NCBI GenBank assembly: GCA_041611735.1
Contig: JBFIML010000048.1
Location: 1 to 29,934, forward strand
Source of the DNA: Myxococcota bacterium
GTDB taxonomy: Bacteria; Myxococcota_A; UBA9160; PR03
Direction: 5' to 3'
Length of the DNA: 29,934 bases
Below the pieces are notes generated by a model that saw nothing but the letters and a program-made list of their open reading frames with translations, did no database searches and was not told the DNA's origin. A program made the position numbers and the translations under genes. Positions 1 to 18,068 of this stretch are shown in pieces; the first letter of the stretch is position 1, and every line of letters begins with the position of its first letter.

Positions 1-155
1 ACGGTCAGGAAGAGGGTGGTCACCTGGAAGGCCACCCGCGTCTCGTCGTCGCGTCCCGGCGTGCAGACGGAGCAGGCCGAGGCCATGCGTGGCGCGCCGG
101 CCAGCAGCGCGCTGGCCACCCAGGCGAACGCGGCTCGCCAGACCAGGGCGCTCAC
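1..155 (-). CDS. Small membrane/exported protein with ACxxC motif, partial (runs off the window edge); last visible gene of the oxidase operon
   Basis: Not in the ORF track. GTG at 155-153 overlaps the TGA of the subunit III gene (GTGA coupling). Reads MSALVWRAAFAWVASALLAGAPRMASACSVCTPGRDDETRVAFQVTTLFLT...: signal-like segment, CSVC, then the start of a hydrophobic helix. Confidence 0.65.
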   Translation of the reverse strand, partial: MSALVWRAAFAWVASALLAGAPRMASACSVCTPGRDDETRVAFQVTTLFLT

Positions 156-760
156 AGGTACACCGTCAGGTAGAGGACCGGCCAGACGCCGACCACGAAG
201 TACCAGAAGACCTCGGCGGTGGCGAGCTGGCTGCTCGCCAGCCACCCGCCCCGCAGGCGCCGCCAGGTGGCCGCCAACAGGCCGAGCGCAATCACCGCGT
301 GCAGGGCATGCAGACCGATGATCAGGTAGAAGAAGCTGCCGAGGCTGCTGGAGGTGAGGGTCAGTCCCTGGCGGACCAGCGCCACCCACTCGACGCCCTG
401 GAAGACCACGAAGAAGGCTCCGAGGGCGATCGCGCCGAGCAGCGTCTGCCGCGCGCGCGCGCGATCGGTCTGGAAGCTGCGACGGGTGAGGCGAAGGAGC
501 ACCCCCGAGGCCAAGAGCGCCGCCGTGTTGAGGGCCGTCTCCTCCAACGGCAGGCGCGGCTGGTCGGGCGGCGGCCAGAGGGGCGAGCCGGAGCGGATGA
601 TGGCGAAGGCGCTGATCAGGCCGGCGAAGAACATCACCTCCGTCAGGACGAAGATGAGCATGCCCAGTACGGGGCTCGGCACGAGCTGGTCGCTGCGCGC
701 CCCGGAGGCGACCCGCAGCCGACTGGCTCCCCGCAAAGCCAGGGACATGACCTCCCCCAT
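152..760 (-). CDS. ctaE: Heme-copper (cytochrome c) oxidase subunit III, short form
   Basis: LGMLIFVLTEVMFFAGL, NTAALLASG, FQGVEW, FFYLIIGLHALHAV, FWYFVVGVW are subunit III motifs. An alternative start is at 748. Confidence 0.9.
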   Translation of the reverse strand: MGEVMSLALRGASRLRVASGARSDQLVPSPVLGMLIFVLTEVMFFAGLISAFAIIRSGSPLWPPPDQPRLPLEETALNTAALLASGVLLRLTRRSFQTDRARARQTLLGAIALGAFFVVFQGVEWVALVRQGLTLTSSSLGSFFYLIIGLHALHAVIALGLLAATWRRLRGGWLASSQLATAEVFWYFVVGVWPVLYLTVYL

Positions 761-769
761 GGAAAGTAG

Positions 770-1159
770 CTAGTGATGCTCGCCGGCGCCGGTGTGCCCG
801 GCGGCGGCGGCCGCCGCCGCCGCCTTCCAGGACGGCTTCTCCCACTGGGTTCCTTCGGACTTCATCACGTCGGGCGCCACGCCGGCGAAGAAGAGCAGCA
901 TGAAGACCAGGCAGGTGGCGACCAGGTAGGTGACGTAGCGCCGGGCGACGTTGAGGTGCATGAAGTTGCGGGCCACCAGGTAGGCCTTCACCACCGCGAT
1001 GCCGAAGGCGGTGATCAGCGTGACCACGCGGATCCCGATCATCGGACCCACGATGCTGATGACCAGCAACACCAGCAGGATCGCGTAGATCCGGGTGTAG
1101 TTGGGATGGTGGCCGACGTCGTATTCGTGGGTGTAGTGCTCGTCGAGAGTCTCGTTCAT
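770..1159 (-). CDS. Cytochrome c oxidase subunit IV family protein
   Basis: Only the 3' part of track ORF 770..1687 is protein-like (MNETLDEH...). It has three hydrophobic helices and the KAYLVARNFMHL motif typical of prokaryotic subunit IV. Confidence 0.85.
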   Translation of the reverse strand: MNETLDEHYTHEYDVGHHPNYTRIYAILLVLLVISIVGPMIGIRVVTLITAFGIAVVKAYLVARNFMHLNVARRYVTYLVATCLVFMLLFFAGVAPDVMKSEGTQWEKPSWKAAAAAAAAGHTGAGEHH

Positions 1160-1176: not shown

Positions 1177-1752
1177 TCACTTGGCGATGTAGAGAAGCGG
1201 GAAGAGAAAGATCCAGACGATGTCGACGAAGTGCCAGTAGATCCCCACCAGCTCGACGCGGTGGAGATCCACGTTCTTCGCCGCACTTCGGGCCACGATG
1301 GCGATCACGATGATGCCGGCGATCACGTGGGAGGCGTGCAGCCCGGCGGCCGTGTAGTAGAACGACCAGAACGTACTGGCCGTGATCGTGAAACCATGGC
1401 TGATCTCCATGGTCCACTCGTAGCTCTTGACCAGCAGGAAAATCGCCCCACCGGCAAAGGTGAGCCACAACATGCGGGCGGCCCGAGGGCCGTCGCCCTC
1501 CTCCGCCGCCTTGTGGCCCAGCACCGCGAAGTAGCTCGAGGTGAGCAGCACGAAGGTGTTGAAAGCGCCGATCGGCATGCTGGTGTGCGCCGCCTGTTCG
1601 GACCAGGCATCGTGCGCCAGGCGGTGCATGATGTAGGAGGCCAGCAGCCCCCCGAAGATCACGATCTCCGAGGCGATCAGCCACCACACGGCCAGTCGGC
1701 CGGTGGGCATCCCCGCGGTTTCACGGGTAGTCGCAATCGGTCGGGCAGACAT
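1177..1752 (-). CDS. ctaE: Heme-copper oxidase subunit III, short form (second copy)
   Basis: Start MSARPIAT at 1752 with GAGGAG upstream. Motifs WWLIASEIVIFGGL, NTFVLLTSS, KSYEW, FYYTAAGLHASHV, YWHFVDIVW. Confidence 0.9.
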   Translation of the reverse strand: MSARPIATTRETAGMPTGRLAVWWLIASEIVIFGGLLASYIMHRLAHDAWSEQAAHTSMPIGAFNTFVLLTSSYFAVLGHKAAEEGDGPRAARMLWLTFAGGAIFLLVKSYEWTMEISHGFTITASTFWSFYYTAAGLHASHVIAGIIVIAIVARSAAKNVDLHRVELVGIYWHFVDIVWIFLFPLLYIAK

Positions 1753-1760
1753 GGGCTCCT

Positions 1761-3455
1761 CTACGCCGGCTCGTTCTGGGGCCAGTAGTCCGACTTGCGG
1801 CCGGGCACGCTGTACTCGTAGGGGCCGCGGTAGACGGTCGGAAGCTCCTTCCAGTTGCCGTGGGGCGGCGGCGAGTCCGCGGTCCACTCCAGTGTGTTGG
1901 CCTGCCAGGGGTTCTTGGGGGCCTTCTCGCCCCGGATCAGACTCGCGATGAAGTTGTAGAGGAACACGACCTGGAAGCCCAGCATCACCAGCAGCGCCGA
2001 GGTCGCCAGCACCCGCACGGGCTGGTAGGCCGCCAGGTCCGGATAGTTGGTGAAGTCGTAGATGCGTCGGTGCTGGCCGGCCAGCCCCAGCACGAAGAGC
2101 GGGATGAAAATCAGGTTGAACGGGATGATGGTGCCCCAGAAATGGATCTTGCCCAGCCTGTCGTTCATCATTCTTCCGAACATCTTCGGGAACCAGTAGC
2201 TGATTCCGGCGTAGAACCCGATGATCGTGATCGGGAAGAAGGTGTAGTGGAAGTGGGCCAGCACGAAGTAGGTGTCGTGCATGTAGATGTCTTCGCCGCT
2301 GGCGCCCAGGAAGATGCCCGTCACGCCGCCGATCAGGAACTCGGCGATGAAGGCGAGGGCCCACAGCATCGGCGTGTTGAGGGTGATGGATCCGCCGTAC
2401 AGCGTGGCGATGTAGACGAACATCATCTCGGCGATCGGGATCGAGATCAGCAGCGTCGTGACCGTGAACACGTGGGCCATGCGCGGATCGATGCCGGCCA
2501 CGAACTGGTGGTGGGCCCACACCGTGAAGGAGAGCACGCCGGTCGCGAACACGGTGTAGAGGATCGTGCGGTAGGCAAAGAGCTTCTTGCGCGCGAAGAC
2601 GGTGATGATCTCCGCCACGATGCCGAGCGTGGGCAGCAGCACCACGTACACCTCGGGGTGGCCGAAGAACCAGAACAGGTGCTGCCAGAGCACTGGGTCG
2701 CCGCCCCGCTGGGGGTCGAAGAAAGCGGTCCCGAGGTTCTGGTCGAAGAGCAGCATGATGGCGCCCGCGATGAGGGGCCCCACGGACGCCATGAACAGGA
2801 TGCTGGCGATGACGATCATCCAGACCACGATGGGGATGTCGTACATCTTCATTCCGGGCGCCCGGGAGTTCATGGCGGTGGTGACGAAGTTGATGCCCCC
2901 CATGAGGAAGGCCACGAATTCGAGCGCCACGGCCAAGACGAAGAGCGTCGAGCCCAAGGGAGTCAGGCTGTACGCGCCGATCGAGGAGAGGGGTGGGTAC
3001 ATGGTCCAGGCGCCGGCGAAGCCGCCCCCGGGCACGAAGAACGAGATCAGCAAGACGACTACGCTGAGCAGGAAGACCTGGTAGGAGAGCCGGTTCAGCC
3101 GCGGGAACACCATGTCGTCGCAGCCGAGCATGAGCGGGATCAGGTAGTTGCCGAAGGCGGCCAGCAGGACCGGCATGGCCACCCAGAAGATCATGATGGC
3201 GCCGTGGTTGGTGATCAGCGCGTTGTACTCGTTGGGCGAGACCACGCCGAACAGCGGCACCTCGATGCCCGGGAAGGCCAGCTGCATGCGGAAGACGTAG
3301 GCGAAGAAGCCGCCGATCAGGCCCATGAAGAGGCCCGTGAACATGTACTGCATGGCGATGATCTTGTGATCGGTCGAGAAGAGGTACTTGCGGACCCAGC
3401 CCTCCTCGTGATGACCGGCTTCTTCGTGACCGTGGGAGGGAACGGTCTCGGCCAT
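1761..3455 (-). CDS. ctaD: Cytochrome c oxidase subunit I, A1-type, with non-canonical K-channel
   Basis: Start MAETVPSH at 3455 with GGAGGAG upstream. Motifs STDHK, TNHGAIMIF, DMVFPRLN, FFGHPEVY, VWAHH, HDTYFVLAHFHY, HRR: all six metal-ligand His plus the cross-link Tyr are present. Confidence 0.95.
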   Translation of the reverse strand: MAETVPSHGHEEAGHHEEGWVRKYLFSTDHKIIAMQYMFTGLFMGLIGGFFAYVFRMQLAFPGIEVPLFGVVSPNEYNALITNHGAIMIFWVAMPVLLAAFGNYLIPLMLGCDDMVFPRLNRLSYQVFLLSVVVLLISFFVPGGGFAGAWTMYPPLSSIGAYSLTPLGSTLFVLAVALEFVAFLMGGINFVTTAMNSRAPGMKMYDIPIVVWMIVIASILFMASVGPLIAGAIMLLFDQNLGTAFFDPQRGGDPVLWQHLFWFFGHPEVYVVLLPTLGIVAEIITVFARKKLFAYRTILYTVFATGVLSFTVWAHHQFVAGIDPRMAHVFTVTTLLISIPIAEMMFVYIATLYGGSITLNTPMLWALAFIAEFLIGGVTGIFLGASGEDIYMHDTYFVLAHFHYTFFPITIIGFYAGISYWFPKMFGRMMNDRLGKIHFWGTIIPFNLIFIPLFVLGLAGQHRRIYDFTNYPDLAAYQPVRVLATSALLVMLGFQVVFLYNFIASLIRGEKAPKNPWQANTLEWTADSPPPHGNWKELPTVYRGPYEYSVPGRKSDYWPQNEPA

Positions 3456-3457
3456 GG

Positions 3458-4195
3458 CTACTCCTCCCGCGCCTGCGGCCTGGCGGCCGCGACGATCGGG
3501 GTCGGGGATTGCCCGGTCTGCTGCTGGATCCAGGCGGCGTGCTGGGCCGGCGTCTCGATGTGAATGCGGGCGCCCATCAGCCCGTGGCCGATGCCGCAGA
3601 TCTCGGCACACTGGATGTCCCACTCGCCGGTCCGGGTCGGCGTGAACCATCCCGTGATCACGCGGCCTGGGATGGCGTCTTGCTTGAGACGGAACACCGG
3701 CACCGAGAAGCTGTGCAGCACGTCCTTCGACTCGAGCTTGTAGTGGTAGAGGGTGTCGACTTCCAAGTGGAGCTCGTTCACCTTGGCGATGTCGTCCGGC
3801 GTGTCGAGGATCCGGTCCGGTCCCGGGTGCACGAACGTCCAGGCCCACTGCTGGCCGATCACCCGCACCGTCTGCTGCGGCTCGGGCAGGGCCTGCTTCA
3901 CGTCGTACCAGACGCGCACCGCGGCCACCACGATGACGACGTCGAAGACCAGCACGGCCAGGTGGGGATAGGTGATCCACTTCTTCTCGCTCTTCTGCTC
4001 CCCGGCGATGTACTGGGCCGGCACCCCCTCCCGCTTGCGGAAACGGAAGATCAGCCAGAAGAAGATCACCTGGCTGGCCACGAACCAGATGCCGACGGAG
4101 ACGAAGATCAGCGTGAAGAGGCCGTCGATGTCCCGGGCGTAGGTCGAGGCGGCCGGGACGAGACCGTCGATCATGGAAGGCAGGCGTTCGAGCAT
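3458..4195 (-). CDS. ctaC: Cytochrome c oxidase subunit II (CuA), no fused cytochrome c
   Basis: Two TM helices, GQQWAW, DVLHSF, KQDAIPG and the CuA motif CAEICGIGHGLM. The start could be the Met at 4174. Confidence 0.93.
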   Translation of the reverse strand: MLERLPSMIDGLVPAASTYARDIDGLFTLIFVSVGIWFVASQVIFFWLIFRFRKREGVPAQYIAGEQKSEKKWITYPHLAVLVFDVVIVVAAVRVWYDVKQALPEPQQTVRVIGQQWAWTFVHPGPDRILDTPDDIAKVNELHLEVDTLYHYKLESKDVLHSFSVPVFRLKQDAIPGRVITGWFTPTRTGEWDIQCAEICGIGHGLMGARIHIETPAQHAAWIQQQTGQSPTPIVAAARPQAREE

Positions 4196-4335: not shown

Positions 4336-4971
4336 CTACTTCGCCTGGCCGCCGGAAAGGGTCATGATGTAGGCGACGACGTCTTTCATGGCCTGCTCGT
4401 CCTGGAGCGTAGAGGCCATGCCCCGCATGATCTGGGCATTCATGTTGGCGGGGTTCGCGGCCCGCACCCCGGACTTGTAACGCTGGAGCGAGGAAAAGAG
4501 GTACCAGTCGCTGGCGTTGTGCAGGGCCGGCGCCTTCAGGGTCTCGTTGCCGACGCCATCGACGCCGTGGCAGGCGGCGCAGGCGCCGTAGAGGGTGGCG
4601 CCACGCTGCGGATCGCCGCCCTCGACGACGGGTTCCGGAAACACCGGCGGCAGGCCCGCCACGTAGGCGGCCACGGCCCGGATCTCGCCGTCGCTCTTGA
4701 GCGCGCGGGCCATGGGGTGCATCCGAAGCCCGGCCACGTCCTCGGGGTGGATGCCGCGCAGGCCGCTCTTGAAGTTCTCGACCTGGGCGACGACGTACCA
4801 CTCCTGGAGGCCCGCGATCGAAGGAGCCAGCACCAGCGGGTTGCCCTCGCCCCGCGCCCCGTGGCACTGGACGCAGAGCTCGAAGAGCTCGGCGCCGTCC
4901 TGCGCGGCGGCCGGCCCCGCCAGCACGACCGCGGTCAGGGCCAGGGCCGCGAGATGCCTGATCGCCAGCAT
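4336..4971 (-). CDS. Periplasmic diheme class I cytochrome c (c4/c553-like)
   Basis: Signal peptide MLAIRHLAALALTAVVLAGPAAA|QD, two heme motifs CVQCH and CAACH, and axial-Met segments LRMHPMA and IMRGMA. Confidence 0.92.
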   Translation of the reverse strand: MLAIRHLAALALTAVVLAGPAAAQDGAELFELCVQCHGARGEGNPLVLAPSIAGLQEWYVVAQVENFKSGLRGIHPEDVAGLRMHPMARALKSDGEIRAVAAYVAGLPPVFPEPVVEGGDPQRGATLYGACAACHGVDGVGNETLKAPALHNASDWYLFSSLQRYKSGVRAANPANMNAQIMRGMASTLQDEQAMKDVVAYIMTLSGGQAK

Positions 4972-5039
4972 GGGGTATCCCGTCTGTGGTGTTCCGTCCG
5001 CGGGCTCCACGTCGTCGCCCGCTGGAATGAGTTTCGCCG

Positions 5040-5056
5040 GCAGGGAGTTAGCCAAA
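5040..5056 (-). promoter_or_regulatory. Possible sigma54-type -24/-12 element upstream of the cytochrome c/oxidase genes
   Basis: Minus strand TTTGGCTAACTCCCTGC has GG-N10-GC spacing about 70 nt before the ATG at 4971. It is only a partial match to TGGCAC-N5-TTGC. Confidence 0.25.
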
Positions 5057-5124
5057 GGCCGCTCGATTCTCAAGACCCGAGGGGGACCTGGGGTCAGCTT
5101 TGCGACCCGGCGAGGCAAAGAGCC

Positions 5125-5559
5125 TCAGTGCGGGGCCGGATTCACGTGGTAGAGGAGCACGTAGATCAGGACGCCCGTGCCCGAGACGTACATCCAGATG
5201 GGCCAGGCCACCCGGGCGAGGCGACGGTGTGCCTCGTCGCGCCGGGCGAGACCGAGACGGATCAGGAGGATGGCCAGCACCGGGACCGTCGCCGCCAGGG
5301 TCACATGGCTGAAGAGGATGGCCAGGTAGAAGGTCCGCACCCCCCCCTGGCCGTGGAACGGCGTGCTTTCGAAGCCCCGCCAGGCCTTGTGGAGCACGTA
5401 CAGGACCAGGAAGAGGGACGAGGCGGCGAAGGCGCTCCCCATCGCCCGGCGATGGGCGTCCACGTGCCCGCGCCGGATGCGGACCAGGCCGAGGATCAGG
5501 AGCGTCGCTGCCAGGGCGTTCAGGCTGGCGTTCAGCGCCGGCAGGAAGGAGAGATCCAC
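5125..5559 (-). CDS. DUF420 (YozB-like) membrane protein, oxidase-associated
   Basis: LPALNASLN, HRRAM, FLVLYVLH, YLAILFSH, HRRLAR, WPIWMYVSGTGVLIY match the DUF420 pattern. Confidence 0.88.
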   Translation of the reverse strand: MDLSFLPALNASLNALAATLLILGLVRIRRGHVDAHRRAMGSAFAASSLFLVLYVLHKAWRGFESTPFHGQGGVRTFYLAILFSHVTLAATVPVLAILLIRLGLARRDEAHRRLARVAWPIWMYVSGTGVLIYVLLYHVNPAPH

Positions 5560-5563
5560 TGCG

Positions 5564-6076
5564 CTATCCGGACGTCCGGATCCGGAGCCGATCCGTGTCG
5601 GGATCGTAGGTCACCAGCAGGACGCTACCCGGGGCGAGCCTCACCGTCTCCTCCAGGACCAGCGGGGCGCGCAGGCCTTGCGGGGCAGGCCCGTCGGGTT
5701 GCGCCGCGAAGCGCACCGTGAGCCGGTGCTCGCCGGGCGCCACGCGAAGCTCGCGAAAGACGTAGGCCGGCCGCTCGCCGCGCACGCCCGCCGGCTGGAT
5801 GCGCGCGTCCAGGCGCGTCTCGCCGTCCAGCGTCACCTGGAGCAGGAAGGGCAGCGTGCGTCCCTCGCAGATGCGCGGACGCCGCATGTGGGGCGGCAGC
5901 TTGGCCAGCTCCTCGGCGCTGGGCTCCCGGCACTCCTCGATGCGCTCGGGCAGCGCCCGCCAGGAGAGCCGGATGCGCGCGTCGTCCCGGGTCTCCACCG
6001 CAAAAGGCAGGCGGGAGCACAGGGCCAGGGCCAGGGCGAGTCCCAGCGCGACCGCGGCAGCCGCCAGCACCCTCAC
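5564..6076 (-). CDS. Membrane-anchored hypothetical protein coupled to the cytochrome b fusion
   Basis: GTG 6076 overlaps the upstream TGA (GTGA). It has an N-terminal hydrophobic helix, then IRLSWR...EECR...LPPHMRRPRICEGR and a beta-rich C-terminus. Confidence 0.75.
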   Translation of the reverse strand: MRVLAAAAVALGLALALALCSRLPFAVETRDDARIRLSWRALPERIEECREPSAEELAKLPPHMRRPRICEGRTLPFLLQVTLDGETRLDARIQPAGVRGERPAYVFRELRVAPGEHRLTVRFAAQPDGPAPQGLRAPLVLEETVRLAPGSVLLVTYDPDTDRLRIRTSG

Positions 6077-7641
6077 GAGGCCTCCGCCCGGGGCCGCTCG
6101 CACTCGAGCTCCACCTCGACGCGCTCCTCCGCCGGCTCCTGCTCCAGCGCCTCGATGGTGCGGCGCAGCTCCGCCAGCGCCTGCAGGACCACGCGGCGCT
6201 CGCCCTCGCCGGCGTAGACGACCCCGAGACGTCGGCGGTCCACGCTCTCGCGCAGCTCTGCCTCGCGGCCGTGGTGGAGCCGTTCCTGGAGCCACTTGGG
6301 GCCCTCGCGGCCCCAGCAGTCCCGGGGCGGACAGCTGGCCACCAGCACGCCGCCGGCACCCGAGCGCAGCAGGAACTCGATCACGGACGTGTGCAGGTGA
6401 CCGGCGCAGGTCACCGGGTGGACCAGCGCCCCGTCCACCGTGTCGCGCTCGGCGAGCCGGCCCGCGCCGCGGCGGCAGGCCAGCAGCACCACGTCGAGGG
6501 CGGCGGGGCGGCGCTGGTTCGCGAAGGCGCGGGCCCGGGCCAGCTCGTCGCGGCCGGTCTCGAGCGGGGGCCCCACCGCCATGGGCGCGCAGGAAGCCGT
6601 GCAGATGCCGCAGCTCACGCATAGCCGGGGGTCCACCTGGGCTACCCGGCGGGCCAGCTCCCCGGCCAGCTCGAGCATGGAGATGGCTCCGTAGGGGCAG
6701 TCCAGGGAGCACTGGAGACAGCCCGTGCAGAGGCGCTCGGAGGAGGCGGAGGGAGCCGGACGCTGCCCGCGGGGCGGGCGCGTCCACCAGGGCACGAGCG
6801 TGAGCAGGCCGGCGAAGCCCAGGAACAGCAGCCAGGCGGTCGCGGGCGCCAGCACACGGCTCGCGGGGAGCCAGAAGGCATAGAAGACGTCGAGCTCCAC
6901 CGTGCCGGGGACGCTCAGGGGCTCCGCCTTGGGCCCGAGCGGCGCGGGGACGAGCAGCGAGACGACGACGAGCGCCGCCAGGCTCCCCCAGAGAAGCCCC
7001 CGCGGCGGGAGGAGCACCGGCCTCGCCAGCCGCGAGACGTGGATCCAGAGCACCAGCGCGAGACCCACGGGAAGCGCGATGTGGAGGAACAGGTTCAGGA
7101 AGAAGAAGGCGCTCGGGATCGGGCGTTCGCCGACGAAGGCGCGCGCCTGGGGCTCCGAGAAGATGGGCAGCGCGTCCATCAGGCGCGCCCCCTCCACGGC
7201 GAGGACGAGCGCCTGTTCGTCCCAGAGCATTACGTAGCCGGTCCAGCCGCACACGAAGGTGCCGAACAGGAGCACCAGGCCGCTCACCCAGGCCAGCGTG
7301 CGCGGACCCCAGCTGCGGTGCTGGAGGAACATGCGCAGGGCGTGCAACCCGGCCGCCGCCACGGCGAGGTCCGCCGCGTAGCGATGCAGGGCACGGATCC
7401 AGCGCCCCGCCCAGACCTGGCCCTCCAGGCGGACCATGGACTCGTAGGGGCCGCCGATCCGGTAGAAGAGCAGCAGGTAGAGCCCGGTGGCGAGCATCAC
7501 CACGAAGCCGAGCACGGCCAGGGTGCCCGACTGGTAGAGGGGGTTGTAGCGCCAGCCGTAGAGGCGATTTGCCACGGCGTCGGCCCGGGCCAGAGGCCTC
7601 CGAAAAAGCGCGCGCGAGGCGTCTCCGAGTCTCCCCTTCAT
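6073..7641 (-). CDS. Fusion: cytochrome b/b6-like domain + 2x[4Fe-4S] ferredoxin + MvhD/FlpD-like [2Fe-2S] domain
   Basis: Heme-ligand His in RALHRY, GLHALR, FLHIAL, WIHVS, plus GWTGYVMLWD. Ferredoxin motifs CTGCLQCSLDCP and CVSCGICTASC. MvhD-like LAC...VTCAG...GAGGVLVASCPPRDCWGREG. Confidence 0.88.
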   Translation of the reverse strand: MKGRLGDASRALFRRPLARADAVANRLYGWRYNPLYQSGTLAVLGFVVMLATGLYLLLFYRIGGPYESMVRLEGQVWAGRWIRALHRYAADLAVAAAGLHALRMFLQHRSWGPRTLAWVSGLVLLFGTFVCGWTGYVMLWDEQALVLAVEGARLMDALPIFSEPQARAFVGERPIPSAFFFLNLFLHIALPVGLALVLWIHVSRLARPVLLPPRGLLWGSLAALVVVSLLVPAPLGPKAEPLSVPGTVELDVFYAFWLPASRVLAPATAWLLFLGFAGLLTLVPWWTRPPRGQRPAPSASSERLCTGCLQCSLDCPYGAISMLELAGELARRVAQVDPRLCVSCGICTASCAPMAVGPPLETGRDELARARAFANQRRPAALDVVLLACRRGAGRLAERDTVDGALVHPVTCAGHLHTSVIEFLLRSGAGGVLVASCPPRDCWGREGPKWLQERLHHGREAELRESVDRRRLGVVYAGEGERRVVLQALAELRRTIEALEQEPAEERVEVELECERPRAEAS

Positions 7642-7891: not shown

Positions 7892-8464
7892 ATGGCCACC
7901 TACCAAACCGGGATCCAAGCGCCCCAGGGCGTGTGGTGGAAGCCCGTCCACGGCAGCGAGAAGATCTGGGCCGCCATCGCCTTCGCCTGGTGCATGGTGC
8001 TCTTCGCGATGATGCCGCTCTGGCACCTGCGCGGCGGGCAGAACCCCTCGGGCATCCGTCACCGGGTCGAGCCCGCGGCCTACTCGGCGCGGGTGCGGGA
8101 GTTCATCGCGCAGTACCAGGTGGGGACGGACGGAGGCTTCCCGGTGGTGGAGCCTCCGCCCGGAAGCCACGTCTACCTGCAGGCCGCCATGTGGTCCTGG
8201 ACGCCGGTGCTGCGGCTCCAGCAGGGCGCCGAGTACATCCTCCACCTCTCCTCCGTGGACGTGAACCACGGCTTCCACCTGTTCCCCCTGAACGTGAACT
8301 TCCAGGTGGTGCCGGGCTACGACTACGGCCTGCGCGTCACCCCCACCGCGGCGGGGGAGTTTCAGATCATCTGCAACGAGTTCTGCGGCGTCGGGCACCA
8401 CCTGATGGTCGGCAAGGTCGTGGTGGTGCCTCCCTCGCTCGCCGCCGCGGAGGGAGCCCGATGA
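7892..8464 (+). CDS. CuA-containing subunit II, single TM (B-family/eNOR type)
   Basis: One TM helix, HLSSVDVNHGF and the CuA motif CNEFCGVGHHLM. Confidence 0.92.
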   Translation: MATYQTGIQAPQGVWWKPVHGSEKIWAAIAFAWCMVLFAMMPLWHLRGGQNPSGIRHRVEPAAYSARVREFIAQYQVGTDGGFPVVEPPPGSHVYLQAAMWSWTPVLRLQQGAEYILHLSSVDVNHGFHLFPLNVNFQVVPGYDYGLRVTPTAAGEFQIICNEFCGVGHHLMVGKVVVVPPSLAAAEGAR

Positions 8465-10185
8465 AGGCGGAGCTGCGCACGTGTCCGGCGACGGGGCTGC
8501 GCGTCCACGACCAGGCCGACGCGCTCATCAAGGCCCATGCGGTGGTGGCCACGGTCGCCCTCCTGGTGGGCGGCGTGGCCGCCATCGGCGTGCTGCTCAC
8601 GCGCTGGCAGGCCGTGCACCTTCTGGACGTGGTGTGGTTCTACCGGCTGCTCACCGTGCACGGCATGAACATGCTGATCTTCTACATCATCTTCTTCGAG
8701 ATGGCGGTGCTCTACTTCGCGTCGGCGGTGCTCTTGAGCTGCCGCATCCCGGCGCCGAAGGTGGGCTGGCTGGCCTTCGGGTTGATGGTCGTCGGGACGC
8801 TCCTGGTCGAGTGGACCATGTTCACGGGGAAGGCGGACGTGCTGTTCACGTCGTACGTGCCCCTGCGCGCAGAGCCGCCCTTCTACCTGGGTGTGATCCT
8901 CTTCGCGGTGGGCGCCCTGGTGGTGGTGGGCCACTTCTTCGCCATCCTTGTGGTGGCGAAGCGCGAGCGCACCTACACGGGCTCCGTGCCGCTGGTGACC
9001 TTCGGAGCGCTGACCGCCGCCATCATCGCGGCCGTCACGCTCCTGCACGGGGCCATCGTCTACATCCCGACCTGGCTCTGGTCCATGGGCTTGATGAACA
9101 TCGACCCGGAGTTCTACCGGCTCGTCTGGTGGGGGCTCGGACACTCGTCGCAGCAGATCAACGTCGCCGCCATGGTGTCGATCTGGTACCTGCTCGGCGC
9201 GCTCACGGTGGGCGGCGTCGTGCTCAACGAGAAGGTGAGCCGCGGCGCCTTCGCGCTCTACATCCTCTTCATCTCCATGGCCTCGGCGCACCACCTGCTG
9301 GTGGACCCGGGCTTCGGCCCCTCCTGGAAGGTCTGGAACACCAGCTACTTCATGTACATGGCCGTGCTGGCCAGCATGATCCACGGCTTCACGGTGCCCG
9401 CCGGCGTGGAGATGGGCCAGCGGCTGCGGGGCATGACCGCGGGGCTGTTCGGCTGGCTGCGGCACGCGCCCTGGGGCGACCCGGGCTGGAGCGCGCTCGT
9501 CTTCTCGGTGGTGATCTTCGGCTTCGTGGGCGGCATCACCGGCGTAACCTTCGGGACCGAGCAGATCAACATCATCGCCCACAACACGCTGCGCATCCCC
9601 GGCCACTTCCACGCCACGGTGGTGGCGGGCACGGCACTCGCCTTCATGGGGGTCACCTACTACGTGATCCCGCTGATCTTCCGGCGCGAGATCGCGTTCT
9701 TCCGGCTGGCTCAGATCCAGCCCTACCTGTTCGCGATCGGCATGACGATCTTCTCGATCGCCATGACCTTCGCAGGCACCTTCGGAGCGCCGCGGCGACA
9801 CTGGGACATCACGTTCTCCGGGGCCCCCTTCCAGGTGGAGTTCTCGCCGGCCGTGGACCTCGTGATCGGCGTGATGGCCGTGGGCGGCATCGTGGGGATC
9901 GTGGGCGGAGCGATCTACATCCTGGTGACGGTCGTCTCGGTCTTCTTCGGCAGGCGCCTGGGGCCGGAGGAGAGCGGGGTCGGCGCCCACGGCAAGGGGC
10001 TCCCGCTCGGGATCGTGCAGCCCCCGCGCGCGCTCGGGCCCGGCGACGACGACACGACGCTGGCGCGCCACCCGCTCGGACACGTGCCGGGGACGATGGT
10101 GCTGGTGATCGTCTTCCTGGCGGCCTTCGTGGTCTACTACTTCGTCAACTGGAAGCTGCTCTCCGTGGTGTGGAAGGTGGGCTGA
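8461..10185 (+). CDS. Heme-copper superfamily subunit I lacking the active-site Tyr; probable eNOR-type nitric oxide reductase
   Basis: ATG 8461 overlaps the subunit II stop (ATGA). His ligands in TVHGMNM, GHSSQQIN, SAHHLL, PGHFHAT; PRR present. The H+4 position is Gln instead of Tyr. Confidence 0.85.
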   Translation: MKAELRTCPATGLRVHDQADALIKAHAVVATVALLVGGVAAIGVLLTRWQAVHLLDVVWFYRLLTVHGMNMLIFYIIFFEMAVLYFASAVLLSCRIPAPKVGWLAFGLMVVGTLLVEWTMFTGKADVLFTSYVPLRAEPPFYLGVILFAVGALVVVGHFFAILVVAKRERTYTGSVPLVTFGALTAAIIAAVTLLHGAIVYIPTWLWSMGLMNIDPEFYRLVWWGLGHSSQQINVAAMVSIWYLLGALTVGGVVLNEKVSRGAFALYILFISMASAHHLLVDPGFGPSWKVWNTSYFMYMAVLASMIHGFTVPAGVEMGQRLRGMTAGLFGWLRHAPWGDPGWSALVFSVVIFGFVGGITGVTFGTEQINIIAHNTLRIPGHFHATVVAGTALAFMGVTYYVIPLIFRREIAFFRLAQIQPYLFAIGMTIFSIAMTFAGTFGAPRRHWDITFSGAPFQVEFSPAVDLVIGVMAVGGIVGIVGGAIYILVTVVSVFFGRRLGPEESGVGAHGKGLPLGIVQPPRALGPGDDDTTLARHPLGHVPGTMVLVIVFLAAFVVYYFVNWKLLSVVWKVG

Positions 10186-10186
10186 G

Positions 10187-11089
10187 ATGGGCGTGGCAGC
10201 CCTCTACGCGCTGTTGGCCGTGACGGCGGGATGGTGGGCCCTCGCCCTTTGGCCCGTGCCCGAGGCCCCGGAGTGGCTGGCCCGCACGCGCTGGGTGTGC
10301 TTCAACGCCGCGCCCAACGGGCTCCCGGACGTCTCCGGCTGGCTGCTGCTCGTCGGGCAACCGATCGGGATGCTGGCGGTCCTCATGGCGGGCTGGGGTC
10401 GCGCGGTCCGCTCCGGACTGCGCGCGCTCGCGGCGCGAAGCGCCGGGCGCACGGCCCTCGGGGCGACGGGCCTGCTGCTGGTGGCGGGCCTCGCCCTGGC
10501 GGGCGTGCGCGTGACCACGGCGGAGCGCAGCGAGGTCTTCGCCCTGGGTCAGGGGGCCCCGCCCCTGGACGGGTGGCCGCGCCTGGACCGCGAGGCCCCG
10601 GCCCTGGGCCTGGTGGACCAGCACGGCGAGCGCCTCGAGCTGGCCCGGCTGCGAGGACGACCGGCCCTGGTCACCTTCGCCTTCGGGCACTGCGGGAGCT
10701 TCTGCCCGGCCCTCGTGCGGCAGACGCTCGAGGCCCAGCAGCAGCTGCGCGCGCGGGCGGCTGCCGGAGAGACGCAGGCCACGCGGATCCCGCGCGTCGT
10801 CATCCTGACCATGGACCCGTGGCGGGACACGCCCTCGCGTCTGCCGCACCTGGCGAAGCACTGGGGCGTGGACGAGGACGGGTTCGTGCTCTCGGGCCAG
10901 GTGGACCAGGTGAACCGCGTGCTCGACGCCTGGGGGGTCGCCCGCAGCCGCGACGCGCAGAGCGGCGAGGTCACCCATCCGCCGCTCGTCTACGTGCTGG
11001 ACGCCTGGGGACGCATCGCCTACGGCGCCACCGGGGACGTGGCCACGATCGTGGCGCTGGTGGAGCGCTCCCAGGGGGACGCTTCGTAG
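10187..11089 (+). CDS. SCO family copper chaperone with N-terminal membrane domain
   Basis: LVDQHG, FAFGHCGSFCP (CxxxC), DPWRDTP and the conserved His in VTHPPLVYVLD. The N-terminus has about three hydrophobic segments. Confidence 0.88.
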   Translation: MGVAALYALLAVTAGWWALALWPVPEAPEWLARTRWVCFNAAPNGLPDVSGWLLLVGQPIGMLAVLMAGWGRAVRSGLRALAARSAGRTALGATGLLLVAGLALAGVRVTTAERSEVFALGQGAPPLDGWPRLDREAPALGLVDQHGERLELARLRGRPALVTFAFGHCGSFCPALVRQTLEAQQQLRARAAAGETQATRIPRVVILTMDPWRDTPSRLPHLAKHWGVDEDGFVLSGQVDQVNRVLDAWGVARSRDAQSGEVTHPPLVYVLDAWGRIAYGATGDVATIVALVERSQGDAS

Positions 11090-13693: not shown

Positions 13694-14173
13694 GTGCTCT
13701 GGTACTTCGCCTACGGGAGCAATCTCGACCCGGAGACCTTCCTCGGGCGGCGGCGGATGAAGCCGCACGAGGCGCGCACCGCTCTGCTGCGCGAGTACCG
13801 GCTCGTCTTCGATCTCGCGGTGGGAAAGGGCGAGCGCGGTGTGGCGAACCTGCTGCCCACGGCGGGCGAGTGGGTGCACGGGGTCGCCTACCGGCTGAGC
13901 GAGTCCGGCGCGCGCTGGCTGGACCGCACCGAAGGCGTCCCGCGCTCCTACCAGCGCGTGGACGTCGCGCTCGAGGCCGACGGCAACCTGCGGCTCGACG
14001 CCTTCACCTACGTCTCGCCCCACCGGCGCCCGGAGCGAAAGCCCTCGCGGCGCTACCTGGAACTCCTGCTGCGCGGCGCCCGGCACCACGGGCTCCCGGA
14101 GGAATGGGTCGCCTGGCTGCGGGACCTCCCGCAGGCTGTGGACGAGCGCGTGGCCCAGGGGGAGCTCCTTTGA
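13694..14173 (+). CDS. Gamma-glutamylcyclotransferase family protein
   Basis: YFAYGSNL, GVANL, VHGVAY, LDRTEG, PSRRYL...GARHHGLP. Confidence 0.88.
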   Translation: MLWYFAYGSNLDPETFLGRRRMKPHEARTALLREYRLVFDLAVGKGERGVANLLPTAGEWVHGVAYRLSESGARWLDRTEGVPRSYQRVDVALEADGNLRLDAFTYVSPHRRPERKPSRRYLELLLRGARHHGLPEEWVAWLRDLPQAVDERVAQGELL

Positions 14174-14187
14174 GCGAGACTGCCGCG

Positions 14188-14550
14188 ATGACCCTGCACT
14201 TCGTCTACAACGTGGAGGGCACACCGCTCGCCATGGCCCTGGACTTCGTGCACCGGCTGCGCTCGCCGGAGACCTACCCGTGCAGGCTGTGCGACGTGAC
14301 CTACGGGCGCTGGGTCAAGAAGGCCGCCTGGCGGCGCTTCGTGCGGGATCTCCCCGGGGAGTCGCGCTTCCACCTGCGGGGCAGCTTCCGGCGCCGCTTC
14401 CCGGACCACGCGGATACCCCCCTCCCTGCGGTCTTCCTGGAGCGGAGCCCGGGACGCCTGGAGCCCCTGATCCCAGCCCACGAGATGCAGCGCGTTTCGA
14501 GCCTCGAAGAGCTCGAACGGCTGCTGGAGAAGCGGCTGGCCGGCGTCTAG
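14188..14550 (+). CDS. Conserved hypothetical protein with SPxTYxCxLCxxTYG motif
   Basis: MTLHFVYN...HRLRSPETYPCRLCDVTYG...FHLR...LPAVF. It is the 3' part of track ORF 13870..14550 and is co-oriented in the operon. Confidence 0.7.
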   Translation: MTLHFVYNVEGTPLAMALDFVHRLRSPETYPCRLCDVTYGRWVKKAAWRRFVRDLPGESRFHLRGSFRRRFPDHADTPLPAVFLERSPGRLEPLIPAHEMQRVSSLEELERLLEKRLAGV

Positions 14551-14561
14551 GGCCGCGGGCC

Positions 14562-17500
14562 TCACACCACCAGCAGGATGCCGGTGGCGGCTTCGCCGGT
14601 GGCGGTGCGCACGGCCTCCACGTAGAGGGCCACCTGCGCCACGTAGACCGGCCGCTGGGAGGCCAGCTCCCGGTCGGTCTTGAAGTCGATCACGGTCCAG
14701 AGGGCGACGGCGCCGGACTTCTCGCGGAAGGCCAGGTCGACGACGCCCTCGGCGAGGATGCCGTCCGGTAGCCGCAAGAGGACCGGGGTCTCGCGACGGC
14801 AGTCGCCGCGCCGGGCGGCGGCGGCGGCCCGGCGCAGGAGCGGATGGGCCAGCGCCGCGTGGGCGGCGCGGGCGGCGGCCTCGATCTCCTGCTGGGAGGC
14901 GCCCACCAGACGGCCGTGCATGCGCGCCGCCGCGCCGACGCCGGCCGCGTCGGCGTCCAGATCCACCGTCGCGAGGACGGCGTGAACGAGCGTGCCGAAG
15001 CGACGCCCGCCCGGACGCCCGGTGCGCTCGGACGCCACCTCGTGGACGGCGACCTCGCCCTCCCCTGCGGCGGGTTGCTGCTTCGCCAGGTCCACCACCC
15101 GCGCCACGCGGATCGATTCGACGCCGCCGCGCTCGAGCCTCTCCTGGCGGCGCTGCTGCCACGCCGCGTGGGCCCGGATGCCGGCCTGGGAGCGCGTTCC
15201 GCCGGCATCCGCCTGCAGGATCCGCTGCTGGCGCAGGCCCACCCCCTCCTCCACGTCGAGCGCGAGAACCGCCGGGTCCCACCAGACGACTTCGTGCTCG
15301 CCGGCCTCGGGACGCACGAGGCCGGGCCGCACCGAGCCGCCCGGGCCCCCGCTGCAGGCGTCCGGCCGCTCGAGCACCGAGTCCGGGCCGAAGGCCGGAC
15401 ATCCGGCCGCAGGCTGGGAGTCGCGGCGCTTCTCCGGGGCCGGATACAGCACCGGATCCAGCATCCCGAGCCAGCGTTCGTCGGGGCGGCCGTCCCGGTC
15501 GCCGATCACCGGCACGATCAGGAGATCGCGCGCCCGGGTGGCGGCCACGTAGCTGAGCCGGATCGACTCCTCCCGGTCGTGGCGCCGCTCCCGCTCTTCG
15601 GCGTCGCGCAGGTCGTGGGGCACGCAGCCGCACAGGGGCTCCGCCCAGACCCCGCGCGCCGCGTCCACGAAGCGGGTCGGGTTGCGGCCCACCAGGTTGC
15701 AGGTCGGGTCCGCCAGCACCACCACCGGAAACTCGAGGCCCTTGGCCTTGTGCACGGTCATGATGCGCACCCCCTCGGTGCCCTCCTCCACCACCGGGGC
15801 GTCCTGGGCCTCGCCGCGCTCGGCCTCCGCCTCCAGGTGCTCCACGAAGGCCCGGAAGGAGGGCGCTCCCCTGGCCTCGAAGCGGCGCGCCACGTCCACG
15901 GTGCGCAGGCAGTTGGCCAGCGCCTGCTCGCCGGTGGGCCAGATGGCGATCCCGGCGTGGGCGCGCACGGCGGCCAGCAGCCGCGCGATCGTGTCGGCGA
16001 TGGGGCGGTGGTTGCGCCGGCGGTGCAGGCGCCCCAGGCGCTCGAGGGCCTCGGCCACCTCGCGCTCCGGCGCGTCCAGCTCCGCCAGCAGCGCGGGCGG
16101 GTGCGGCCGCAGAGTGAAGAAGCGGCCGACCCGGTGGCGATAGGCCAGCAGCGCGTCGTCCCCCAACGCGAAGAGAGGCCCGCGCAAGCTGGCGTAGACG
16201 CGCAGCTCGTCGTCGGGCCACTCGATGGCGCCCAGGGCGTTGCGGATGGCCAGCACCTCCTCGCGGTCGTGGAAGGAGCGCCCGCCCACCAGCACGTGCG
16301 GCATGCGGCGCGCCTCCAGGGCGCGCACGTAGGGACGTGTCACGTCGCGTTCGAAGCTCCTGAAGCGGCGGAACAGCAGGCAGACGTGCCGCGCCCGGAC
16401 GGGGACCGACTCCCGCGTGATGGGATCCTGCACGGTCCAGCCGCTCTCCTGCACCAGCCAGGCCACGAAGGCGCCTACCGCGTCGGGACAGGACTCCTCG
16501 ATCTTCCAGTGCGCGACCTTGCCGTAGTCCGCGTAGGGCCGGGGCACGGGCAGCGCCACCAGGGACGGGCGGCCCGCCACCTCGTCGCGGAAGCGCTCCA
16601 GGGATACGTAGTCCGCCTGGCTGCCGTCCTGGCTCGCAGTGATCACCGGCGCGAAGGCCGCGTTCACGGCGGCCTGCAGCGGCGGCAGCGCCCGGAAGCT
16701 CGTGCTGAGCTGGAGGACGTCCGCGCCGCCCGCAGCGAGCTGGCGCTTCACGGCCTCGTAGGTCATGACGTCGGCGCGGCGGAAGCGGTAGATGGACTGC
16801 TTCGGATCGCCCACGATGAAGAGCTTGCCGGGCACGACGGCGACCCGACGCCAGTCCGTCGTGGCGGGATCGTCTGCCGCCAGCAGCAGGATCAGCTCCG
16901 CCTGCACGGGGTCGGTGTCCTGGAACTCGTCCACGAAGAAGTGGGTGAAGCGGCGCTGGAACTCGCTGCGCACGACGGCGTCGCTGCGCACCAGGTCCCG
17001 GGCGCGCACCAGGAGGTCCAGGAAGTCGAGCTTCCCGGCCCGCGCCTTGAGCGCCTCGTAGGCCCTGACCGCCGGGCGCAGCTCCTCGCGCAGACGGGCG
17101 GCCAGGTCCGCCTCGGAGGCCTCCAGGAGCTCGTCCAGCCGTTCCTTGATCGCGTCCCGGCGCGCCAGCACGTCGTCGCGGTGGAGCTCGCCGAACGAGG
17201 TCCGCGCGCTTCCCTTCCAGGTCCAGCCCACCTTGTTGGGCCCGGAATTGCGGCGGGCGAGGCGCCAGAGGTCGCTCTCCAGCCCGTCGTAGTCGCGCCC
17301 GCCGCGAACACCCTCCACGAGCCGCGTCTCCGCCACGAAGTCGCCCAGGTTGCGCAGGTTCTTGGCGAGCCAGTCGTCGGCCCAGCTCGCCTGGTGGGCG
17401 AGCGCGGCGACCGCCGCCAGCTCCTCCATCACGGCGTCGATGGCGGCGTCGCGGTCGAAGCCCGGGTCGCGTCGCCATGCCGCCGCGAAGTCCCGGTGCT

Positions 17501-18068
17501 CCGCCAGCTTCGCCACCGCGGCGCGGACCTGCTCGCGGGGGCCGATCTCGCCGCGGTTGCGCGCCCGGCGGCGCAGCAGGCGTCGCACGCCCTCGGGCGG
17601 GTCGGAGAGCACGCCCTGGAACCAGCCCTCGAAGGCGCGGTCCAGCAGCCGCGCCGATTCCTCCTCGTCCGCCATCTCGAACAGGGGATCCACGCCGGCC
17701 TCGATGGGGCGCTCGTGCAGCAGGTCCGCACAGAAGGCATGGATGGTCATGATGCGCGCCAGCTCGAGCTGCTCGAGGGCGCGGTCCAGGTGGGTGCGCT
17801 CGGCGGCTTCCGCCGCGCTGCGCGCGGTCTCGATCTCGGCACGCAGGCGCAGCTTCATCTCCCCGGCGGCCTTCTCGGTGAAGGTCACCGCCACGATGCG
17901 GTCCAGGGTTCCGAGGCCAGAGCGCAGGAGCGAGACCATGCGGCCCACCAGGGCGGTGGTCTTGCCCGTCCCGGCGGCCGCCTCCACGAAGAGGGTGGCG
18001 TCGAGGTCGTCGCGGATGCGGGCGCGGGCCGCCGCGTCCTTGAGGGGCTTGCGCCGCGCCGCGCTCAC
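14562..18068 (-). CDS. addA: UvrD-type helicase/RecB-type nuclease AddA
   Basis: GTG 18068 overlaps the addB stop. EAAAGTGKTT, VTFTEKAAGEM, VDEFQDTD, VGDPKQSIYRFRRAD, MTVHKAKGLEF, YVAATRARD, and nuclease GVVDL...IDFKTD. Confidence 0.92.
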   Translation of the reverse strand: MSAARRKPLKDAAARARIRDDLDATLFVEAAAGTGKTTALVGRMVSLLRSGLGTLDRIVAVTFTEKAAGEMKLRLRAEIETARSAAEAAERTHLDRALEQLELARIMTIHAFCADLLHERPIEAGVDPLFEMADEEESARLLDRAFEGWFQGVLSDPPEGVRRLLRRRARNRGEIGPREQVRAAVAKLAEHRDFAAAWRRDPGFDRDAAIDAVMEELAAVAALAHQASWADDWLAKNLRNLGDFVAETRLVEGVRGGRDYDGLESDLWRLARRNSGPNKVGWTWKGSARTSFGELHRDDVLARRDAIKERLDELLEASEADLAARLREELRPAVRAYEALKARAGKLDFLDLLVRARDLVRSDAVVRSEFQRRFTHFFVDEFQDTDPVQAELILLLAADDPATTDWRRVAVVPGKLFIVGDPKQSIYRFRRADVMTYEAVKRQLAAGGADVLQLSTSFRALPPLQAAVNAAFAPVITASQDGSQADYVSLERFRDEVAGRPSLVALPVPRPYADYGKVAHWKIEESCPDAVGAFVAWLVQESGWTVQDPITRESVPVRARHVCLLFRRFRSFERDVTRPYVRALEARRMPHVLVGGRSFHDREEVLAIRNALGAIEWPDDELRVYASLRGPLFALGDDALLAYRHRVGRFFTLRPHPPALLAELDAPEREVAEALERLGRLHRRRNHRPIADTIARLLAAVRAHAGIAIWPTGEQALANCLRTVDVARRFEARGAPSFRAFVEHLEAEAERGEAQDAPVVEEGTEGVRIMTVHKAKGLEFPVVVLADPTCNLVGRNPTRFVDAARGVWAEPLCGCVPHDLRDAEERERRHDREESIRLSYVAATRARDLLIVPVIGDRDGRPDERWLGMLDPVLYPAPEKRRDSQPAAGCPAFGPDSVLERPDACSGGPGGSVRPGLVRPEAGEHEVVWWDPAVLALDVEEGVGLRQQRILQADAGGTRSQAGIRAHAAWQQRRQERLERGGVESIRVARVVDLAKQQPAAGEGEVAVHEVASERTGRPGGRRFGTLVHAVLATVDLDADAAGVGAAARMHGRLVGASQQEIEAAARAAHAALAHPLLRRAAAAARRGDCRRETPVLLRLPDGILAEGVVDLAFREKSGAVALWTVIDFKTDRELASQRPVYVAQVALYVEAVRTATGEAATGILLVV

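Follow-up and report, generated by a model that had tools for sequence, protein, structure and literature searches.

The window analysed here, i.e. positions 1 to 29,934 of contig JBFIML010000048.1 of GenBank assembly GCA_041611735.1 (a Myxococcota bacterium), carries a complete cox operon on its minus strand, with the genes in the order II-I-III-IV-III' and all reading frames open. The operon encodes a haem-copper oxidase (HCO), the subunit I of which, CoxI, has no lysine in the K-channel. Genes and residues discussed in the text are listed in Table 1. Residue numbers are those of R. sphaeroides (Rs), unless marked as P. denitrificans (Pd) or given for the window CoxII, and the subunit is indicated in brackets where needed.

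Table 1. Genes and residues of interest in the window; residues are given within the gene that encodes them (TM, transmembrane).
Feature	Position	Strand	Remarks
second COX3-like gene	155..760	-	202 aa; PF00510 1.1e-22
coxIV	773..1159	-	caa3-type subunit IV family; TIGR02229 42.8 bits, above cut-off; PF03626
coxIII	1180..1752	-	191 aa, short form; PF00510 9.3e-18
coxI	1764..3455	-	564 aa; A-family (HPEVY) subunit I without K-channel lysine; PF00115 1.3e-132
CoxI helix IX Glu	2340..2342	-	Rs position 390, a variable polar position; from alignment to 1M56_A
CoxI helix VIII motif PIAEMMF	2418..2438	-	T359I, G360A, I361E (2427-2429), K362M (2424-2426)
CoxI S356, helix VIII	2442..2444	-	canonical A356; Ser in clade 132/132, sister group 5/5, PSVIILT clade 8/8
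CoxI helix VII hydroxyl ladder	2529..2567	-	T315 (2565-2567), T319 (2553-2555), T323 (2541-2543), S327 (2529-2531)
CoxI helix VI A299-E300	2610..2615	-	Rs S299-H300; A299 at 2613-2615, E300 at 2610-2612
CoxI helix IV E197-F198-V-A200-F201	2907..2921	-	upper D-channel serines replaced and new Glu: S197E, S200A, S201F
coxII	3461..4195	-	245 aa; CuA subunit II, two TM helices, no cytochrome c domain; TIGR02866 CoxB 4.7e-39, PF00116
CoxII Asp85	3941..3943	-	intramembrane, TM2, fifteen residues above the E101(II) position; invariant in 40/40 aligned CoxII
CoxII His78	3962..3964	-	in TM2, eight residues further up than Glu70; co-varies with CoxI E361
CoxII Glu70	3986..3988	-	equivalent of the K-channel entrance E101(II); E aligned to E in 1M56_B
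dihaem cytochrome c	4339..5118	-	upstream context; PF00034/PF13442
DUF420 protein	5128..5559	-	upstream context; PF04238
CuA-type subunit II-like gene	7892..8461	+	second haem-copper cluster
second HCO subunit I	8461..10185	+	574 aa; B-family-like; nearest solved relatives B-family ba3 oxidases (7deg_A 1.2e-46)
SCO1/SenC	10187..11086	+	second haem-copper cluster

The alignment of CoxI to the Rs chain 1M56_A (phmmer, 7.8e-124) is ungapped from residue 279 to 381 of the query, corresponding to 295-397 of the chain, and thus over helices VI to IX. Compared with Rs subunit I, the changes found are S299A, H300E, T359I, G360A, I361E, K362M, S365V and W366Y, together with a Glu at 390. A first-pass annotation, made from the letters of the window alone, had read the four K-channel changes (T359I, K362M, S365V and S299A) by eye; the alignment confirms each of them and places no lysine in the channel. 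In order to evaluate how constant such changes are, they were counted over 132 sequences of the clade described below and over 80 lysine-containing representatives. E361 is present in 131 of the 132 clade sequences, and position 362 is Met in 125 of them, Leu in 6 and Ala in 1. A299 is found in 128, and its neighbour at 300 is either Glu (92) or Asp (40), residues which are common at that position in lysine-containing enzymes too.

The residues of the metal sites and of the lower D-channel are in place. The ligands of haem a (H102, H421), haem a3 (H419) and CuB (H284, H333, H334) are present, and the six His, Y288, E286, D132, N121, N139, N207, S142, Y33, R481, R482 and the Mg-site pair H411/D412 are each invariant in the 132 clade sequences, in agreement with the first-pass statement that the His ligands and the cross-link Tyr are intact. 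The window CoxII, which aligns to 1M56_B, retains the CuA ligands (H161, C196, E198, C200, H204 and M207). The AlphaFold2 model of CoxI, built from a 109-sequence alignment, has a mean confidence (pLDDT) of 91.5 and 12 TM helices, with only about 29 residues before the first of them. Searched with Foldseek, it matches A-family chains with a query TM-score (TMq) of 0.86-0.89, the R. sphaeroides cytochrome c oxidase being on top; the best match is 3om3_A, the Rs K362M mutant (TMq 0.87, root-mean-square deviation 1.7).

Six His ligands, a cross-link Tyr in helix VI, a 12-TM fold and a CuA subunit II are the traits of A-family O2 reductases, and all of them are found here. Nitric oxide (NO) reductases are recognized by the absence of the cross-link Tyr and/or by altered metal-B ligands; here the Tyr and the three CuB His are invariant. 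The residues that define the A1 subtype (PMC3084760, Table 2) are partly missing. Within its K-channel set (K354, T351, S291 and Y280, Pd) the Tyr alone is kept, the others being changed to Met, Ile and Ala, respectively; within its D-channel set (D124, N199, N113, N131, Y35, S134, S193 and E278, Pd) seven of eight are present, S193(Pd), i.e. S201(Rs), being Phe in 132 of 132 sequences. CoxI also scores 589.4 bits against the NCBIfam equivalog TIGR02891 (CtaD_CoxA), below the curated cut-off of 670.75, and hence represents a divergent A-family subfamily. Invariant ligands and channel residues, CuA ligands, the codon pattern given below and the fold support catalytic competence, and CoxI is best read as the subunit of a functional aa3-type, O2-reducing cytochrome c oxidase of the A-family.

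The unusual helix VIII is shared by a large group of proteins. Among the matches listed for CoxI, 119 homologues are 79-89% identical to it, mostly labelled Myxococcota where named, and all show P-x-A-E; counting the query, which occurs twice, 121 of 121 proteins read P-[ILV]-A-E-[MLA]. In a sample of 201 genomes from the phylum of the window, about 62 have a copy at least 69% identical, and within one family 24 of 61 genomes carry the lysine-free oxidase. In a library of representatives at 50% identity, identity to the query is bimodal, members of the clade being at 57% or more and all others at 48% or less. The codon of E361 was GAG in 42 of 50 loci, GAA in 7 and CAG in 1, and the synonymous GAG/GAA variation is as expected under purifying selection. 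The proposal of a distinct, conserved and intact subfamily is thus borne out: close homologues have no lysine either, the motif is found in all 121 proteins and the clade is fully supported.

Trees were built with FastTree on 130 rows and by an IQ-TREE quick search on 57 rows. The Glu-bearing clade has a support of 100 in both, and its sister group (97/96), which reads P-[FVI]-A-V, lacks both the lysine and the Glu at 361; the two together form one lysine-free clade, again with a support of 100. Because the sister group, with Val at 361, has no lysine either, the trees indicate that the lysine was lost first and that E361 was gained later. The coordinated loss plus gain supposed by the first-pass annotation is therefore not upheld.

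Other lysine-free lineages were seen among the representatives, namely a 'PSVIILT' clade and lineages with Gln at 362. The former (L042-L045; the CoxI ORF of L045 runs from about 2910) is an A-family clade of the same phylum, named after its helix VIII, 45-48% identical to the query; it keeps S200/S201, and its CoxII has more than one Glu inside TM2 ('WLEVGVAVAE'). One genome has a PSVIILT oxidase and a Glu-clade oxidase about 6 kb apart. Gln in place of K362, within 'P[ST]G[IV]QVFAW', is found in the A-family representatives P0181-P0183, P0203, P0225, P0229, P0241, P0245, P0250 and P0264, several of which are about 790-850 residues long, and the representative P0265 has a Glu at 362 itself.

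The entrance of the K-channel is formed in Rs by residues of subunit II, and neither of them is a fixed feature here. H96(II) aligns to Gly65 of the window CoxII. E101(II) corresponds to Glu70, and a conserved entrance was considered at this point; it was dropped, as over 34 clade loci position 70 is Leu in 16, Gln in 9, Glu in 8 and Pro in 1, though the window keeps the Glu. Two residues further up in TM2 behave differently. Asp85 is invariant in 36 Glu-clade and 4 sister sequences, and was 34 of 34 in another count; neither R. sphaeroides nor the lysine-type CoxII of L046 and L047 has an Asp there. The other is His78.

Covariation of His78 with CoxI was analyzed over fetched loci in which CoxI lacks the lysine, has S327 and carries an acidic residue (Glu or Asp) at 197, a filter that leaves out canonical and PSVIILT loci. 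There were 92 such loci, 75 of which, the window included, have a readable TM2. Of at least 593 pattern matches in metagenomes, no more than 80 loci were taken. E361 is accompanied by His78 in 63 of the 64 loci that have it, the other one (L077) showing Pro. Position 361 is Gln in L030, where CoxII 78 is Asp, and Ile in L075 and L088, where the His is kept and a Glu appears three residues earlier in CoxII. All of these exceptions are nested inside the Glu clade. In the 8 loci of the sister group neither residue is found: position 361 is Val, Leu, Phe or Tyr and CoxII 78 is Val, Cys, Gly or Leu. The pattern is suggestive, although not proof, of residue 361(I) touching TM2 of subunit II, and of a carboxylate-imidazole pair being what is selected.

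A second set of changes lies largely at positions that wall the Rs K-cavity. Position 315 is Thr in 124 of 132 clade sequences, compared with Gly, Ser, Ala or Pro in the lysine-containing representatives. Positions 319, 323 and 327 are Thr, Thr and Ser, respectively, in all clade sequences, whereas in the 80 lysine-containing ones they are Ala (63) or Ser (16), Ile (80) and Gly (69) or Ser (11). S327 tracks the loss of the lysine more generally: it is constant in the clade (132/132), the sister group (5/5) and the PSVIILT clade (8/8), and 17 of the 23 remaining lysine-free representatives have it, compared with the 11 of 80 just mentioned. The Ser at 356 (Table 1) replaces a residue which in lysine-containing representatives is Ala in 71, Gly in 8 and Ser in 1, and position 335, after the CuB ligands, is Gln in 132 of 132 clade sequences versus Met in 78 of 80.

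According to passages of a molecular dynamics study of the Rs enzyme (PMC10341450), the K-channel comprises H96(II), E101(II), S365, K362, T359 and Y288. Its width is measured there from helix VIII or subunit II to helix VII, as P358-A319, K362-M316, S365-P315 and E101-P315, the helix VII wall being P315, M316 and A319. The boundary is drawn through P315, G324, G327, A356, I363, S365, W366 and G398, plus H96, L100 and E101 of subunit II, with A356 as a corner of the polyhedron. The wall and boundary positions given in these passages include 315, 319, 327 and 356, which places the clade hydroxyls T315, T319, S327 and S356 at the walls of the Rs K-cavity.

Of the two new intramembrane Glu pointed out by the first-pass annotation, E361 is a nearly constant feature of the clade, and the one in helix IX is one of several variants at its position. 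Position 390 is Glu in 76 clade sequences, Thr in 51, Ser in 3 and Ala in 2; in lysine-containing representatives it is mostly Leu (37) or Met (25), and 3 of them have Glu. Glu at 390 was also found in K362-containing paralogues (L046, L047 and P0160) from the same phylum. As the position is variable within the clade and may be Glu in lysine-containing enzymes, the helix IX Glu was rejected as an obligate partner of E361; the P-x-x-E-M pattern does define a clade, as had been anticipated, without the helix IX Glu co-occurring throughout it.

The D-channel had been described as intact. This holds for the named motifs and for E286, and not for its upper part, where the helix IV serines are replaced. 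Position 197 is Glu in the clade (132/132) and in the sister group (5/5), and mixed in lysine-containing representatives (Ser 24, Ala 21, Leu 15). F198 (131/132), A200 (131/132) and F201 (132/132) stand against Gly (77/80), Ser (65/80) and Ser (71/80), respectively. These helix IV changes are common to the sister group. Since the Rs D-channel set in the passages of PMC10341450 includes F109, S197, S200 and S201, the E197, A200 and F201 changes sit on the D-channel, the upper part of which is not canonical. At the mouth of the channel (3078-3119, minus strand), changes were seen in the Glu clade only: an Asp at 131 beside D132 (132/132), N140R (131/132) and W144Q (131/132), the sister group having Asp, Arg or Ala at 131, Met at 140 and Trp at 144. 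Double mutants of the S200V/S201V type are said to uncouple pumping; a literature search for such D-channel mutants found no paper.

Compared with the aa3 oxidases of R. sphaeroides and P. denitrificans (A1; 1M56, 2GSM and 1AR1), the window enzyme is similar in identity (about 39-40%), in fold (TMq 0.86-0.88), in the metal ligands, in the HPEVY motif with E286 and Y288, in D132, N121, N139 and N207, and in the presence of subunit III and of a subunit II with CuA. It differs by the four K-channel substitutions, by E101(II) not being conserved and by the Gly in place of H96(II), and its new residues are E361, His78(II), Asp85(II), T315/T319/T323/S327/S356, E197/A200/F201 and Q335. With the Rs K362M mutant (3OM3) it shares the Met at 362. 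In that mutant one residue alone is changed and the rest of the channel is canonical, whereas here the Met is found among dozens of conserved co-changes, in the apparent sole O2 reductase of a genome. The Rs K362M mutant is reportedly nearly inactive. Literature passages report that mutation of the lysine slows the reduction of the oxidised enzyme.

Lysine-free A-family oxidases as such are already known, and the novelty claimed in the first-pass annotation was overstated. Passages of 10.1101/2020.03.01.968255 report apolar residues in place of K354, with loss of COX2 E78, in acidophilic iron oxidisers, Thioclava, Actinobacteria and Chloroflexi. Degli Esposti et al. 2021 (PMC8239418, Suppl. 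Table S1 and Table for Fig. S7) tabulate 'KC-channel', 'hybrid' and 'modified' lysine-free A-family COX1 over many phyla, A1 and HPEVY types included, among them the rus-operon aa3 of Acidithiobacillus and the enzymes of Thioclava, Chloroflexi, Elusimicrobia, Methylacidiphilum and Bacteriovorax. Those proteins have an apolar residue at K354(Pd), often lose S291/S357, often have COX2 E78 substituted, carry a Ser on helix VII and in some cases keep HPEVY. The window CoxI agrees in having a non-protonatable residue for K354 (M362) and in the loss of S291/S357 (A299, V365). As for substitution of COX2 E78(Pd), i.e. E101(Rs), the window keeps the Glu, and the clade loci vary, 8 of 34 having Glu. 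The Ser/Thr that these enzymes have on helix VII, at positions equivalent to the cbb3 K^C channel, may be matched by S327 and T319 (132/132 each), by our mapping to the table columns.

Differences were found as well. No entry in the PMC8239418 tables has a Glu beside the lost lysine, and no myxobacterial lysine-free enzyme is listed, the one Nannocystis entry having the lysine; His78/Asp85(II) and E197/F201 are not among the columns. The '2TM' group of acidophiles and Thioclava (Table S1) has one or two additional N-terminal TM helices, and the window CoxI has 12 TM helices in the model. The C-family cbb3 oxidases resemble it in that polar helix VII residues of their K-analogue (K^C) channel lead to the region of the active-site Tyr; the window enzyme is not C-family, and differs from these oxidases by its D-channel, its CuA subunit, its haem a-type partners and the retained helix VI Tyr. 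S327 presumably takes the position of the cbb3 helix VII Tyr, a mapping of our own from the order of the table columns and from the cbb3 structure. The likeness to sNOR (Murali et al. 2024, PMC11214002) does not go beyond the principle, sNOR being derived from the B-family and lacking the Tyr, and the window enzyme being an A-family O2 reductase. A literature search for a Glu-containing lysine-free A-family clade returned only general lysine-free reports; neither the E361/His78 pair nor E197/F201 was found described in it, Degli Esposti 2020 (BBA) and the Fig. S7 and PDF supplements of PMC8239418 being outside its scope. What is new here is the covariation of E361 with His78(II), together with the hydroxyls at K-cavity wall positions.

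The genome of the window (95% complete, 118 contigs) has only two genes for HCO subunit I, both in the window, as well as a gene for the haem A synthase CtaA; no match to cytochrome bd was found in it at this completeness. The second HCO, on the plus strand, reads H-S-S-Q-Q where ba3-type enzymes have H-P-V-V-Y, a Gln replacing the cross-link Tyr. Since this enzyme lacks the Tyr and no other O2 reductase was recognized, the genome gave no candidate O2 reductase besides the lysine-free oxidase. A SenC gene follows the second HCO, a gene order known for sNOR. By its sequence the second HCO probably belongs to a B-derived NO-reductase family of the sNOR/eNOR type (PMC11214002).

Some other observations were made along the locus. 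A short COX3-like gene stands on either side of coxIV (202 aa at 155-760 and 191 aa at 1180-1752, minus strand), an arrangement which resembles the '2 COX3' operon subtype a-III of PMC8239418 Table S1, although that table gives a-III as lysine-containing. A gene between the two oxidase clusters (6076-7641, minus strand) encodes a 522-aa protein in which a cytochrome b (PF00033) at the N-terminus is fused to a 2x[4Fe-4S] ferredoxin domain and, at the C-terminus, to a FlpD/MvhD-like domain (PF02662); as a membrane redox module it is unusual. Very long overlapping ORFs are present on both strands in a high-GC stretch at 14053-21367, the longest, of 2248 aa, at 14562-21308 (minus strand). Three RNA-library runs, which contain only 5% of the sampled words, yielded at a similarity threshold of 85% short contigs about 85-90% similar to parts of coxI, including 2232-2549; these belong to relatives and may be DNA carry-over, and no conclusion was drawn from them.

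In our preferred reading, to which we assign a probability of about 0.5, the operon encodes a working aa3-type oxidase in which the K-cavity is re-lined around a Glu361(I)-His78(II) pair, replacing K362 and the H96/E101 entrance, with hydroxyls leading to Y288. What the data show is which residues are substituted, how conserved the substitutions are, in what order they arose, that 361(I) and 78(II) co-vary, and that the fold is canonical. The canonical K-pathway residues are gone in the subfamily, both in subunit I (S299, T359, K362 and S365) and in subunit II (H96/E101); the lysine was lost before the subfamily arose, and Glu361 was gained afterwards, presumably buried against His78 of TM2(II). 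The cavity would persist, re-lined by T315/T319/T323/S327 from helix VII and S356 from helix VIII. Protons for the reduction of haem a3-CuB would enter at the interface of subunits I and II, pass the Glu361-His78 pair, which would stand in for K362 and the H96/E101 entrance, and then climb the Thr/Ser ladder, with the help of waters, to Y288. The D-pathway is kept from D132 to E286, its upper serines being changed to E197/A200/F201. The rerouted proton path suggested by the first-pass annotation is thus plausible, with indirect support from the covariation and from the hydroxyls on the cavity walls; contact, hydration, proton conduction and pumping are deduced from sequence.

Several points weigh against this reading. 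Residue 361 lies about 100 degrees away from the K362 face, and the E361-His78 contact, like all side-chain orientations, is deduced from covariation and helical register only. The covariation, as the sequences are related and hence not independent, comes down to a single joint gain, two double changes that compensate each other and a loss that is not compensated. The ladder does not need its lower rungs, T315 and T323: in the metagenome loci position 319 is Thr or Ser, position 323 is sometimes Val or Leu, and position 315 is often apolar, being Leu, Ser, Val, Met or Ile in many members. L077 keeps E361 without His78, and the conserved sister group has neither, so that the pair is evidently not indispensable to a lysine-free enzyme.

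The last two points also speak for the strongest alternative, i.e. that the K-pathway has no substitute and that all chemical and pumped protons pass through a D-pathway remodelled with E197. The Glu361-His78 pair would then be a structural hydrogen bond or salt bridge, stabilising the packing of subunits I and II after the loss of K362 and E101(II). We hold this to be less likely than the preferred reading. The sister group, without the lysine and the pair, still keeps E197/F201/S327/S356 and D85(II), the D-channel entrance and E286 are invariant, and passages of 10.1101/2020.03.01.968255 argue that the lysine-free COX of acidophilic iron oxidisers probably retain only the D-channel. On the other hand, two D-channel serines changed to Ala and Phe are hardly an upgrade for a channel on double duty. 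The hydroxyls gather specifically on the walls of the K-cavity, and S327 follows the loss of the lysine in unrelated lineages. A purely structural pair, moreover, would not be expected to retain a carboxylate together with an imidazole or a second carboxylate through both double changes.

An altered function, also raised by the first-pass annotation, appears improbable. The buried carboxylates (E361, the Glu or Thr at 390, D85(II) and E197) would form a Na+ or metal site or pathway, or the substrate would have shifted, e.g. to NO. Several acidic residues are indeed embedded in the membrane, and the adjoining Tyr-less, NOR-like HCO makes it probable that the organism meets NO. The binuclear ligands of an O2 reductase and the cross-link Tyr are invariant, however, no known cation-site motif was identified and nothing points to Na+, position 390 is variable, and the enzyme is the only candidate O2 reductase in the genome; no evidence for a Na+ or metal pathway or for altered chemistry was found. 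A decaying or mis-sequenced gene with a one-off K362M, suggested only by the resemblance to an inactivating laboratory mutation, the structure of which is the top Foldseek match, is excluded for practical purposes by a pattern shared by hundreds of homologues under purifying selection, by the open frames and by the complete operon.

A further-reaching version of our preferred reading may be put forward, tentatively and at rather less than even chances. The ionisable centre of the K-pathway would have moved from a lysine of subunit I to an inter-subunit Glu361-His78 pair, which can be re-partitioned between the subunits, as the CoxII Glu of L075/L088 and the Gln/Asp swap of L030 suggest. With the serine-water section below E286 also giving way to a second carboxylate, E197, this would make a differently wired A-family proton machine, possibly with other gating or another stoichiometry of protons to electrons.

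K362 is a textbook "essential" residue of mitochondrial-type oxidases, and the contribution of the K-pathway is still debated. Should the pair turn out to be only structural, the enzyme would be a well-documented new member of the known lysine-free A-family oxidases. A widespread natural enzyme without the lysine, which keeps the remaining A1 machinery and is apparently the only O2 reductase of its host, provides a natural test of which K-pathway features are chemical necessities and which are historical accidents. The covariation of Glu and His names specific residues for mutation, and through E197/A200/F201 the water chain of the D-channel below E286 can be probed in a natural variant. Members of the clade occur in genomes of very few contigs, so that an experimental system may be within reach.

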